Below are positions 1 to 55,911 of a stretch of DNA of 55,911 bases, one piece after another. A model generated the notes under the pieces. That model was not told the DNA's origin, did not search any database, and saw nothing but the letters and a program-made list of their open reading frames with translations. The stretch's first letter is position 1. Every line of letters starts with the position of its first letter. The stretch is from a virus, in the UHGV virus genome UHGV-1364082; one strand, 5' to 3'. A program made the translations under genes and the position numbers.

Positions 1-258
<258 letters not shown>

Positions 259-284: not shown

Positions 285-410
285 ACCCAAAATATACCTA
301 TATGAATTTTTATCTTGACTTTCAATCGTACCTTTAGGTATTATCTCTTCACGACGCCCGGGGAAGGCGAACACGCCCGGCACACCAGCCGGAAAGTAGC
401 CACAAGCCCC

Positions 411-476
411 GGGCGGAGGAAGCCAGTTTGGGCGGCATGAAGGCCGTAGCGATACGGTGGGCGGAGCAAGAGGCCG
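411..476 (+). repeat. Three imperfect direct repeats, GGGCGG(A/C)NNAAG(A)GGCC.
   Basis: gggcggaggaagcc, gggcggcatgaaggcc and gggcggagcaagaggcc, about 25 bp apart, in GC-rich ORF-free DNA. Confidence 0.5.
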
Positions 477-531
477 CCCGGAAAGCTCGAAAGAGGCCCG
501 TGAGACTGGTGAGGCGAAGAAGTAGTAGCCG

Positions 532-616
532 GGAAGGATGGCAGAGAGGCCGATTGCGGCGGTGAAAACCGCCGATGTGAAAGCATCCGTGGGTTCGAAT
601 CCCACCCCGTCCGCCA
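532..616 (+). tRNA. tRNA-like element with CCA end, type-II (Ser-like) architecture and a non-canonical anticodon loop. Could be a pseudo-tRNA, a frameshift-suppressor-like tRNA, an attP tRNA fragment or a tmRNA-like tRNA domain.
   Basis: Perfect T arm GTGGG-TTCGAAT-CCCAC, then CCCGTCC-G-CCA. Variable hairpin GATG-tgaaag-CATC. Anticodon-like stem with a UGAAAA loop of 6 or 8 nt. D arm GCA...TGC resembles tRNA-Ser. The 5' acceptor strand pairs imperfectly. Confidence 0.45.
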
Positions 617-794
617 GATTGAAAAGTGAAGAGTCGTTGTTTCGAGGGATGGATTCGCAGAGGTGCACGTGTCCAGCGAGTGGTGCACGCGCATAAAAAT
701 TCCTCGCGTAGAGAGAGCCGAATATCTGCGGTGCGTTTGCCAGATTCGGCATGGCAAGCAAAGGCGGCTCCATCCGCTCGAAACAGCGACACAC

Positions 795-869
795 AGCCGG
801 GTAGCCAAGCGGTTACGGCAACAGGCTTTGACCCTGTGATCGGCGGTTCGAATCCGCCCCCGGCTGCCA
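795..869 (+). tRNA. tRNA-Gln (anticodon UUG).
   Basis: Acceptor AGCCGGG/CCCGGCT. D arm GCCAAGCGGTTACGGC, like E. coli tRNA-Gln. Anticodon stem-loop ACAGG-CTTTGAC-CCTGT. T arm GGCGG-TTCGAAT-CCGCC, discriminator G, CCA encoded. Confidence 0.85.
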
Positions 870-3018: not shown

Positions 3019-3264
3019 ATGAACGCTCAGAGAAAGGAAAATATCGCCCGCGCCATTATCGCCAACCGCTCGACGGCTCAACTTTGCGAGATGTTCGAGG
3101 CCACCAACAACACGGACAGGGAAAAGATTCTCGAACAGGCGATGGTTCGCGGCTGGATCATGGACGAACTGGAAAAGAGGGACGCGGAAGCATTCGACCG
3201 CTGGATCGACTGTGAAGACCCCAAGATGATGGAAAGGCCCCGTTGTTTCTTCATCGCCGCCTAG
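3019..3264 (+). CDS. Hypothetical early protein.
   Basis: ORF with AAGGAG RBS directly downstream of the promoter. Confidence 0.5.
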   Translation: MNAQRKENIARAIIANRSTAQLCEMFEATNNTDREKILEQAMVRGWIMDELEKRDAEAFDRWIDCEDPKMMERPRCFFIAA

Positions 3265-3310
3265 CCCCGGCCCCTGCCCCGATTCTTCGGGGTAGCAACC
3301 GGGATTGGGA
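3261..3310 (+). repeat. Intergenic hairpin repeat, copy 1 (CCTAGCC...CCCCG-ATTCTT-CGGGG...CGGGATTGGGA).
   Basis: About 50-nt element shared with copies at 3721 and 4194. Confidence 0.6.
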
Positions 3311-3720: not shown

Positions 3721-3771
3721 CCTAGCCCCGCACTTGCCCCGGATTCCGGGGCAGGAAACGGGATTGGGAAC
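3721..3771 (+). repeat. Intergenic hairpin repeat, copy 2.
   Basis: CCTAGCCCCG...CCCCGGATTCCGGGG...CGGGATTGGGA. Confidence 0.6.
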
Positions 3772-4193: not shown

Positions 4194-4242
4194 CCTAGCC
4201 TCGAACAATCCCGGATTTTCCGGGATTACATCGGGATTGGGA
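4194..4242 (+). repeat. Intergenic hairpin repeat, copy 3.
   Basis: CCTAGCC...CCCGGATTTTCCGGG...CGGGATTGGGA. Confidence 0.6.
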
Positions 4243-4276
4243 CGCCGATCCAGACTTCAACGCAGGAGAGAAGGTT

Positions 4277-12262: not shown

Positions 12263-12475
12263 ATGGACACAACTGTTTCAGAAATCCGTTCAATCGTTCT
12301 ACGGCGTAGGGAATTGGCTCTTGAAGATGAACGCCTCTTTCAACGGTTTCTCGAACTGCTCGAACTCAACCAAGGGGCTAGAAAATCATCTCGTGATACG
12401 CTATCCCCCAAAGCAGGGAAGGCGTTTTTTGCTGACGTGAAAAGGAAATCCCATGAGCGTAGCAAAGCGCGGTGA
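12263..12475 (+). CDS. Small protein upstream of the integrase; possible excisionase or directionality factor.
   Basis: Position only. Overlaps the integrase start. Confidence 0.3.
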   Translation: MDTTVSEIRSIVLRRRELALEDERLFQRFLELLELNQGARKSSRDTLSPKAGKAFFADVKRKSHERSKAR

Positions 12476-13511
12476 CGGCAGATTTGTCGTCAAGTTCAAG
12501 GATGAGGAGGGGCGCTGGAGACAGCGCTCTTTCCGTAGTGAGGAAAAGGCTTGGCAGTTCGATGCGGATTGCCAGTATGATGCGGTGGAAAACACACGGT
12601 TGACGTTGTTGGAGGCGGTTCTGGTGTACCTAAAAAATACCGAACACGCCGAGAACACCGTAGGAATTTATGAGTTCATTGTGTGCGGGCATGATCGAAA
12701 GAATGGGGAACACAGAGAGGGTCCAGCGGAGTTCCTTGCAAACAGATTCGTGGATACATTGACTCGTCGTGACCTCGAAACTGTACGTGAACGGTGCAGG
12801 AATGACGGCCTCTCAACAGCGAGTATCAATATCTATGTCGGAAAGATCAAAGCTGCACTCAGTTGGTGCGTTGAACAAGACTTACTCCATGAAAACCCTT
12901 GGGGTAAATATCGGCAACTCCCCGGAGCAAAAAACAAGCCACGTACAGGAACACTGGAAGACTTCCGCAAACTCTTTCCAGTGCTCCCCCCGTGGCTTCA
13001 ATGGGCAGCTAAAACTGCCATTGCCTTATGTTTGCGTCCCGGCGTGTCCGAACTGTTTCGATTAGAATGGTCGGCATTCGATTGGAAGAGTAGAGCCGTG
13101 AACGTTTACATGCCGAAGGTAGATAGCACCAAAATAGTATTCCCACCAGAGGAATATCTTCAAGAGGCATGGGTACGCTACCAAGATGATGCTCAAAATG
13201 GTCAAAGTTTGGTTTGCAGAAGCAGAAAGGGGGGCAACGTGAATAGAGGGCTTTATCAAACTGCATGGAGAAGAGCTTGCAGAAAAGCTAAAGTTTCCAT
13301 GTCGATGTATGCCCTGAGACATATCGCTGCATCCGAAATGCTTTCAAGAGGTGTGGATATTGCCGCAATAGCTGCACAGCTTGGACATAAAGATATTACC
13401 ACCACAGGCAGTTTTTACACACACGCTCTCGCATCTTCCCAACGTCGAGCAGCGTCAGCTCTTTCTGCTTGCACCACGTTGGTGCAGATTGGTGCGGAAA
13501 ACGGTATCTAA
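12453..13511 (+). CDS. int: Tyrosine site-specific integrase.
   Basis: C-terminal ...ALRHIAASEMLSRGVDIAAIAAQLGHKDITTTGSFYTHA (R..H..R..Y catalytic box). Confidence 0.9.
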   Translation: MSVAKRGDGRFVVKFKDEEGRWRQRSFRSEEKAWQFDADCQYDAVENTRLTLLEAVLVYLKNTEHAENTVGIYEFIVCGHDRKNGEHREGPAEFLANRFVDTLTRRDLETVRERCRNDGLSTASINIYVGKIKAALSWCVEQDLLHENPWGKYRQLPGAKNKPRTGTLEDFRKLFPVLPPWLQWAAKTAIALCLRPGVSELFRLEWSAFDWKSRAVNVYMPKVDSTKIVFPPEEYLQEAWVRYQDDAQNGQSLVCRSRKGGNVNRGLYQTAWRRACRKAKVSMSMYALRHIAASEMLSRGVDIAAIAAQLGHKDITTTGSFYTHALASSQRRAASALSACTTLVQIGAENGI

Positions 13512-47192: not shown

Positions 47193-47275
47193 CTCCGCTA
47201 TCGGCCCCGCATGAAAACCTTGGGCAGGGGCGCGGAATACCCTTTTCGGCTGGCCTACCTAGCCCAAGGAAATTT

Positions 47276-54471: not shown

Positions 54472-54555
54472 ATTATACCTTTAGGTATTTTATAGATCAA
54501 GAAAATTATTCCTATACGGCATTGAAGGATTAATACCTTTTGGTAGCATAAAAAA
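54472..54555. promoter_or_regulatory. Divergent promoter/operator region of the genetic switch.
   Basis: Two ATACC-N4-GGTAT(g) palindromes. Confidence 0.55.

Positions 54556-55811: not shown

Positions 55812-55911
<100 letters not shown>

Follow-up and report, generated by a model that had tools for sequence, protein, structure and literature searches.

Positions 532–616 of the virus genome UHGV-1364082 (55,911 nucleotides, the whole of which is referred to here as the window) hold a tRNA-Ser-like element with an unusually short anticodon arm. With a probability of roughly 0.8, we consider this element to be a non-decoding deletion chimera that serves at most as a processing unit: its 5′ part derives from a tRNA-shaped module without an anticodon, hereafter the odd module, and its 3′ part from a tRNA-Ser(UGA) gene, both of which stand side by side in sister phages.

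Related loci and the origin of the element

Relatives of the window were collected by exact match to the 81-amino-acid protein encoded at 3019–3264. Three of these loci, L002, L004 and L006, show no difference from the window over as much as 3.3 kb; the 532–616 element is present in L002 and L004, and L006 begins just 3′ of the junction described below. At the homologous position, the integrated prophage L001 carries a canonical 88-nt tRNA-Ser(UGA), and L003 has two elements in this slot, namely the short-loop odd module (87–88 nt, reported as ‘tRNA-???’) and, after 35 nt, a canonical tRNA-Ser(UGA). Alignment with L001 and L003 shows that the window element equals the odd module up to the anticodon arm and the tRNA-Ser gene from there on. 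Bases 532–562 agree fully with the 5′ portion of the odd module of L003, L104, L140, L149 and L160, and the 3′ 45 nt (572–616) agree fully with the 3′ portion of the tRNA-Ser(UGA) gene of L001, L104 and others. Both parents share the 9-mer TGAAAACCG in the anticodon arm, the two copies lying 125 nt apart, and in-silico removal of these 125 nt in L104, L140, L149 and L160 yields the 85 nt of the window with 0 mismatches. The same removal in L003 and L023 leaves a single mismatch, and over the flanks (438 nt) the window differs from L003, L104 and L140 at 5–9 positions only. Since the reconstruction is exact, we take the element to be a deletion chimera to which the odd module has contributed the 5′ part and tRNA-Ser the 3′ part, the two parents being diverged paralogues.

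The early array of the sister phages, consisting of a leader, the odd module, 35 nt, tRNA-Ser(UGA), a spacer and tRNA-Gln(UUG), would thus represent the starting point. In the lineage of the window the 125 nt between the TGAAAACCG copies are missing, probably through replication slippage or short-homology recombination, so that the two parts are joined. This origin accounts for every peculiarity of the element. Its acceptor stem is mismatched because A4 and A7, whose co-evolved partners in the odd module are U69 and U66, are now placed opposite G69 and C66 of the tRNA-Ser, and its short anticodon arm is inherited from the odd module. As ARAGORN detects no other tRNA-Ser gene in the window, this lineage has lost its tRNA-Ser. 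Among the loci fetched, 15 carry the odd module, three the chimera (the window, L002 and L004) and 13 a tRNA-Ser without the odd module, with the qualification that some contigs may sit in two collections; a scan of IMG/VR viral contigs with a chimera-specific pattern returned no match.

Because the parents share short identical stretches, the element might be suspected to be an assembly artefact in which two repeat-like elements were collapsed into one. The longest word shared at the junction is, however, only 9 nt long, far below assembler k-mer sizes, and an identical junction is found in independent samples assembled with different programs, namely SPAdes for L002 and MEGAHIT for L004. A repeat too short to be collapsed, together with the recovery of the junction by different assemblers, argues for a real genotype, and we consider an artefact hardly conceivable.

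The first-pass annotation of this DNA had listed a degenerate pseudo-tRNA among the possible identities of the element, which comes closest to the truth as regards its state; its cause is recombination and not slow decay. Decay in place would mean that a tRNA-Ser gene accumulated point mutations and a 3-nt loop deletion in its 5′ half without any recombination. Defective tRNA copies do occur in the cluster, and the 5′ part of the element resembles the 5′ half of L015-type tRNA-Ser, GGCAGAGCGGCCUAAUGC. Nevertheless, five substitutions and a 3-nt deletion in one half and none in the other are unlike what decay predicts, the 5′ part is base for base that of the odd module, where it finds perfect pairing partners in the module's own 3′ half, and the in-silico deletion reproduces the element exactly. 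Decay in place is hence strongly disfavoured and very improbable. The proposal of an attP-type 3′ tRNA fragment is likewise not supported, as the 3′ part is identical to the phage's own tRNA-Ser(UGA), found at the same locus in sister phages, as the element lies 12 kb from the integrase gene (12453–13511), and as the locus is internal in the integrated prophage L001.

Architecture of the shortened anticodon arm

In the whole 55.9-kb window, ARAGORN reports two genes, ‘tRNA-???’ at 532–616 (plus strand) and tRNA-Gln(UUG) at 795–869. Over its full length the element is 75–78% identical to annotated phage tRNA-Ser genes in BLAST comparisons, and bases 563–616, its 3′ two-thirds, are 90.7% identical to the tRNA-Ser of Synechococcus phage S-H9-1. 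Against the Rfam tRNA model (RF00005) it reaches 27.7 bits (E = 0.0018 in 851 nt), slightly less than the gathering score of 29. This resemblance is far beyond chance and characterizes the element as tRNA-Ser-derived with a non-canonical anticodon arm. The initial description of a type II, tRNA-Ser-like element with an aberrant anticodon loop is thereby confirmed by ARAGORN, Rfam, BLAST and the sequence itself, and the T arm, acceptor 3′ strand, discriminator, CCA, variable-arm hairpin and D arm all read as it had claimed. The imperfect pairing that it noted for the 5′ acceptor strand resolves into two non-pairs, A4.G69 and A7.C66, next to five Watson–Crick pairs; the T arm and D loop are canonical. 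The sequence features of type II substrates of seryl-tRNA synthetase (SerRS), i.e. the long variable arm, G73, G1-C72 and G2-C71, are all four present.

In the RF00005 alignment, four unpaired bases (GAAA, closed by a U-A pair) take the place of the 7-nt anticodon loop. The arm comprises 14 nt instead of the normal 17, and a loop with U33 on a 5-bp stem is absent. While the first-pass annotation had allowed for a loop of 6 or 8 nt only, the non-canonical size stands and the restriction does not, since the arm can also be drawn with 5 bp and a GAAA tetraloop besides 4 bp and UGAAAA. The covariance model chooses the tetraloop, which is also favoured energetically (−30.8 kcal/mol, compared with −28.4 for the hexaloop). 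A redrawn arm with the 7-nt loop GGUGAAA and a C.A mismatch was discarded, since the register is set by the D stem and the variable arm and the anticodon arm is only 14 nt long. No covariance model gives an ordinary 7-nt loop, and the non-canonical arm is thus real.

We therefore consider it scarcely credible that the element is a decoding tRNA with an unusual loop, be it a frameshift suppressor or a two-base or four-base reader. This reading could point to the 6-nt loop with a 2-base anticodon that ARAGORN assigns and to the position within a tRNA cluster. Known +1 suppressors, however, have an 8-nt loop, whereas the loop proposed to be expanded is in fact contracted, with three nucleotides fewer than in the parental tRNA-Ser(UGA); moreover, the arm lacks U33 and the 32–38 frame, its closing U-A pair produces a GNRA tetraloop, and the acceptor stem is mismatched. 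Likewise, a tRNA-like domain of a tmRNA-like RNA finds no support: the tmRNA mode of ARAGORN and the Rfam tmRNA and permuted-tmRNA models were negative, even at E values up to 10, and the GC-rich DNA upstream is a conserved leader module in its own right, behind which most relatives have no tRNA-like element. The pairing of U70 with a G3 invoked in this context does not exist, position 3-70 being A-U.

The chimera RNA would be made within the early polycistronic precursor and, given this architecture, would present no anticodon, and hence neither decode nor suppress frameshifts, because either loop (the GNRA tetraloop or the six-membered loop) lacks U33 and the arm has three bases fewer than its parent. 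The acceptor stem, T arm and encoded GCCA suggest that RNase P cleavage at G532 and 3′ trimming are probably kept, so that a putative remaining role, independent of an anticodon, could be to keep the leader RNA apart from the spacer and tRNA-Gln that follow. The anticodon plays no part in serine identity, which is conferred by the long variable arm, G73 and the first acceptor pairs (PMC9976931). Since the chimera retains these elements, weak serylation is possible; the mismatched acceptor stem argues for poor folding of the chimera, and a serylated chimera would have no ribosomal use. With −5.2 kcal/mol, the acceptor helix of the chimera is weaker than those of the odd module (−9.8) and of tRNA-Ser (−12.8).

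Some points weigh against this interpretation. The minimum-free-energy fold of the chimera (−35.2 kcal/mol versus −30.8 for the cloverleaf) shifts the acceptor register and loses the D stem, so that the RNA may misfold and simply be degraded. That the event was a deletion rather than an insertion is argued from parsimony. Finally, the relatives are all close, and the near-invariance of the odd module could therefore reflect recent spread as well as selection.

The anticodon-less parent and tRNA mimicry

The odd module reaches 38.7 bits with the Rfam tRNA model, contains no non-canonical pair and shows a 3-nt gap in the loop; sister tRNA-Ser genes score 48.9–54.7 bits. We counted pairs on the cloverleaf in an alignment of the chimera, two odd variants and six tRNA-Ser variants. 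Standard pairs fill 98.6% of the pair cells, compared with 36–62% when the partners are slid against each other. In six cloverleaf pairs both partners have changed, and five of the six distinguish the odd module from tRNA-Ser, namely 4-69 (C-G in tRNA-Ser, A-U in the odd module), 7-66 (G-C in tRNA-Ser, A-U in the odd module), one pair of the variable arm and two of the T stem. Unpaired cells are limited to 4-69 and 7-66 of the chimera and A7.C66 of one tRNA-Ser variant. The odd module hence appears to be a maintained type II tRNA fold without an anticodon and with a perfect acceptor stem. Only three sequence variants of it were found. It is kept exactly from G-1 to C73-U-C-C, and the flanks vary on either side (L003-type, L045 and L051/L066 contexts). 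In the loci fetched it always lies directly behind the leader, and in five of them it stands there alone, without tRNA-Ser or tRNA-Gln. CCA is not encoded in the odd module (e.g. L003:6880–6967), and G-1:C73 could form an eighth acceptor pair; such a pair is the identity mark of bacterial tRNA-His.

In most loci nothing tRNA-like follows the leader. Apart from the odd module alone, the slot may hold the odd module with tRNA-Ser and tRNA-Gln, or tRNA-Ser directly. A 113-nt element that forms a four-way junction follows the leader in L001 (5470–5582), L028, L086, L117 and L147; it has a 7-bp acceptor stem (CCCCUAG/CUAGGGG) and the T arm GAGG-UUCGAUU-CCUC. L099 and L175 carry an array of tRNA-Met, a 77-nt tRNA(UAA), a 101-nt type II element, tRNA-Ser and tRNA-Gln, and the ‘anticodon arm’ of the 101-nt element folds as 7 bp with a triloop, for which ARAGORN forces the call ‘Phe(aaa)’. 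The 113-nt and 101-nt elements are two further tRNA-shaped modules without a usable anticodon loop, unrelated to the odd module. The recurrence of non-decoding tRNA shapes in one slot suggests some shape-dependent role.

The tRNA-Met copy of L175 has a 1-nt deletion. The tRNA-Gln copy of L003 (7269–7342) has the anticodon UUA, of the ochre-suppressor type, and a 1-nt deletion in the D arm, scores 46.3 bits with the Rfam tRNA model and could be a real suppressor or a decaying copy. Both defective copies show that indels are tolerated in the cluster, which fits relaxed selection and scars.

These modules raise the question whether the chimera, like its odd parent, might be a selected, functional non-decoding tRNA mimic that acts through its shape. 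Such a mimic could be a decoy or sponge for host factors that recognize tRNA shape, such as defence nucleases of type II tRNAs, nucleotidyltransferase toxins, SerRS or the CCA-adding enzyme, or else a serylated carrier for a non-ribosomal reaction. In its favour, three unrelated anticodon-less modules (odd, 113-nt and 101-nt) share the slot in sister phages, the fold of the odd module is kept through the five compensatory double changes, its sequence is exact to the edges of the cloverleaf with both flanks varying, and the chimera has kept the serine identity elements and CCA. Host defences that cleave the variable loops of type II tRNAs exist as well: Septu cleaves tRNA-Tyr there, and phages counter it via tRNA dosage (PMC13096335). 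On the other hand, the chimera has a weakened acceptor stem and is rare (three of 18 odd-derived loci, all in one lineage), tRNA copies in the cluster often carry indels suggestive of relaxed selection, and neither Pfam lists nor protein matches contain a tRNA-related enzyme of the phage. We regard a selected mimicry function of the chimera itself as improbable.

A broader version, to which we give tentative and minor weight, holds that functional anticodon-less tRNA mimics recur in the early transcript, either as decoys or sponges or as RNase P punctuation that frees a put-like leader, the chimera being a working variant that gained G73-CCA. Decoy targets would here be nucleases or toxins acting on type II tRNAs, SerRS or HisRS, or the CCA-adding enzyme. 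We thus favour the non-decoding deletion chimera, with processing as its utmost function.

Leader RNA, phage context and comparison with known systems

Table 1. Features of the early region of the window around the deletion chimera
Feature	Position	Strand	Remarks
Operator-like 12-mers	295–306 and 329–340		329–340 overlaps the early promoter; 295–306 is a near-copy
Early promoter, TTGACT-18-TATTAT	315–344	+	promoter scan, 10/12 matches, best in region
Leader RNA (candidate)	349–520	+	about 172 nt, GC- and purine-rich, ORF-free; cores CACGACGNNCGGGGAAGGCGAA, GGAGGAAGCC and GGUGA
Odd-derived 5′ part of the chimera	532–562	+	acceptor 5′ strand, D arm, 5′ strand of the short anticodon stem
Acceptor 5′ strand, GGAAGGA	532–538	+	read from sequence
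D arm, GCA/UGC stem	541–557	+	read from sequence
Anticodon-arm remnant, GCGGU-GAAA-ACCGC	559–572	+	read from sequence
Crossover microhomology, TGAAAACCG	563–571	+	once per parent; includes the GAAA tetraloop (564–567)
tRNA-Ser(UGA)-derived 3′ part of the chimera	572–616	+	variable arm, T arm, acceptor 3′ strand, G73, CCA
Variable arm, GAUGU-GAAA-GCAUC	574–587	+	read from sequence
T arm, GUGGG-UUCGAAU-CCCAC	589–605	+	read from sequence
Acceptor 3′ strand, CCCGUCC	606–612	+	read from sequence
G73 and CCA	613 and 614–616	+	read from sequence
Conserved spacer, tRNA-Ser (here chimera) to tRNA-Gln	617–794	+	178 nt; found in 20 loci
Canonical tRNA-Gln(UUG)	795–869	+	ARAGORN; Rfam tRNA 63.1 bits

The early promoter (Table 1) is very probably under the control of the phage repressor, since the 12-mer TACCTTTAGGTA occurs exactly only at 329–340 and at 54476–54487, between the divergent CI-like and Cro-like genes, and since a near-copy lies beside each of them (295–306 and 54534–54545). 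Matches with at most two mismatches number 17 versus 4.8 expected. The order of this region, consisting of the CI-like gene, an AT-rich accessory gene, a terminator (263–276), the promoter, the leader, small genes, ERF/SSB and the integrase, mirrors the lambda order cI-rex-PL-nutL-N-red-xis-int, and the early operon holds several strong terminator hairpins on the plus strand.

The first-pass annotation had correctly noted GC-rich, open reading frame (ORF)-free DNA upstream of the element; this DNA (180 nt) is non-coding and contains a conserved leader RNA that ends 11 nt before the element. The leader measures 150–175 nt in relatives. Scans with its 5′ motif found it in 22 viral contigs and, after filtering of chance hits, in about 60 loci overall, which represent 42 distinct leader sequences. 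Mosaic-like, the leader combines conserved cores with hairpin inserts that have been swapped; one long-range helix shows compensatory changes in three consecutive pairs, and the leader indels in L012 and L140 are not multiples of 3, which argues against coding. Neither the leader nor the spacer at 617–794 nor the other GC-rich modules, which come after the leader in most loci, match any Rfam family at gathering or lax E-value thresholds. We thus propose the leader as a candidate new family of phage non-coding RNA.

HK022 put is a two-hairpin RNA much shorter than the 150–175-nt leader. The leader shares its position with HK022 put and lambda nutL, just downstream of an immunity-controlled early-left promoter and ahead of an operon with terminators (PMC9378689). 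The leader differs from both in that it has no similarity in sequence or size and occurs in one genome copy only, a second copy in analogy to putR being absent from the window. By position, the leader might be a put-like antitermination RNA, which we offer as a hypothesis only.

Some candidate features of the leader were rejected. A 45-codon arginine-rich ORF (428–565) that might encode an N-like protein is absent in other leader subtypes and broken by 1-nt indels in L012 and L140. The closing helix UCUUCAC/GUGAAGA is doubtful, since the likely transcription start (about 351) falls within its 5′ strand. Three matches of the leader pattern in species-representative genomes (a Methanobacteriota metagenome-assembled genome (MAG), a Casimicrobiaceae MAG and Haloarcula) were judged to be chance from the taxa alone.

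Downstream of the chimera, the spacer is almost invariant among the window, L001 and L003, though these differ elsewhere (in the flanking tRNAs and the leader), and it might represent a further small RNA. A long hairpin, GCCGAAUAUCUG...CAGAUUCGGC, lies within the spacer; L021, L023 and L149 carry a different sequence there. The canonical tRNA-Gln(UUG) that had been reported behind it is recovered by both ARAGORN and Rfam. A non-coding module at about 1342–1600 (GGCGGUAAGCUGACCUUUCGACAGUUCGACCGCC...) also occurs downstream of the leader in relatives without tRNA genes (e.g. L014) and belongs to the same set of modular non-coding RNAs. A GC-rich, ORF-poor block of about 500 bp (about 1950–2460), located between two small membrane-protein ORFs and a gene for a 98-amino-acid protein (2558–2854), is conserved at 98–99% in L001, L003, L005 and L008–L010 and has no Rfam match. 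The palindromic ACTAAATTTTAGT is repeated at about 2470–2510 and 2920–2965, beside the latter gene and a second promoter (2942–2970), and an intergenic repeat, CCCGGAUU..CCGGG...CGGGAUUGGGA, precedes successive early genes (about 3265–3310, 3725–3770 and 4200–4245).

The pattern GCGGTGAAAACCG followed by a T loop matched mostly tRNA genes of unrelated large phages in which a hairpin contains this sequence, and was judged an irrelevant match on a GAAA-capped hairpin. In such large phages (L036–L058), a conserved GGCGGUGAAAACCGUAGUGGUAAG hairpin lies just upstream of the tRNA 3′ half, and an Rfam group I intron ends at that hairpin in L036, L040, L044 and L053, the only four loci where this is checkable. 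Several of the L036–L058 loci hold tmRNA or permuted tmRNA genes.

By PHROG and Pfam matches, the window can be classified as the genome of a temperate siphovirus. It encodes a tape measure protein, a J-like tail fibre protein, a major head protein, a portal and a large terminase, besides a DnaB-type helicase, an ERF recombinase, the tyrosine integrase, a cII-like gene and a divergent pair of Cro/CI-type helix-turn-helix genes near 54.2–55.0 kb. BLAST against phage genomes found no cultured phage with close DNA similarity; siphophages of Pseudomonas and Klebsiella have terminases that share about 70% identity with that of the window. Most related contigs originate from human-gut metagenomes. 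The record is a circular genome, permuted and cut inside a (GA)n run, which is found at both ends of the window (1–45 and 55877–55911) and is contiguous in L002, so that the run is real. It lies within a small AT-rich ORF starting at 55813, whose predicted product is a Glu-Arg repeat; situated between the CI-like gene and the early promoter, this ORF has the look of an accessory gene. An int-alpA RNA motif (RF02996) at 47205–47269 on the minus strand (43.5 bits; gathering score 35.8) adjoins the terminase small-subunit region.

For annotation, the call of unknown specificity that tRNA finders make here denotes neither a tRNA nor a recoding device, and tRNA-Ser should be recorded as absent from this phage. 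At single-base resolution, the case shows how a short-homology deletion between paralogous tRNA-shaped genes remodels phage tRNA arrays. It further directs attention to a conserved tRNA mimic that lacks an anticodon and preserves its fold through compensatory changes, and to a structured leader RNA at the lambda nutL/HK022 putL position in temperate phages of the human gut. As far as Rfam and the literature searched show, the odd mimic, its two unrelated counterparts and the leader RNA are undescribed. Mimic and leader are candidates for new phage RNA functions, i.e. processing punctuation, anti-defence decoys or RNA-mediated antitermination, and the odd parent, the two other anticodon-less modules and the leader are leads of more interest than the chimera itself.

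Among known systems, the element resembles bacterial and phage type II tRNA-Ser(UGA), with which it shares the overall cloverleaf, the 3-bp D stem, the GG of the D loop, the 5-bp variable arm with its GAAA loop, the T arm, G1-C72, G2-C71, A3-U70, G73 and the encoded CCA. It differs from it by the 14-nt instead of 17-nt arm, in which C32, U33 and U34 are missing, and by the two acceptor mismatches. The +1 frameshift-suppressor tRNAs of the sufD and sufB2 type have gained one nucleotide in an 8-nt loop and keep U33 and a perfect acceptor stem; only a loop of non-canonical size is shared with the element, which has lost three nucleotides and carries a mismatched acceptor stem. A T arm, an acceptor stem and CCA are also found in tmRNA, whereas the element possesses neither a tag reading frame nor pseudoknots, and its 5′ acceptor strand is adjacent, not hundreds of nucleotides away. 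The bacterial Y-RNA YrlA similarly mimics the acceptor, D and T arms with its anticodon arm replaced (PMC4201824). In YrlA, however, the replaced arm is a long Ro-binding helix; the window has no Rfam Y RNA match, and no Ro or Rsr gene was found in the phage. Like mascRNA, which defines the 3′ end of MALAT1 (PMC8457004), the element has a tRNA shape without a working anticodon loop and immediately follows a longer structured non-coding RNA, whose 3′ end would be set by RNase P cleavage. The two are not homologous: mascRNA comes from eukaryotes, whereas the element derives from a bacterial-type tRNA-Ser and belongs to the early transcript of a phage, where its cleavage is predicted. Taken together, the element would work most like a pseudo-tRNA or a tRNA-like processing element.

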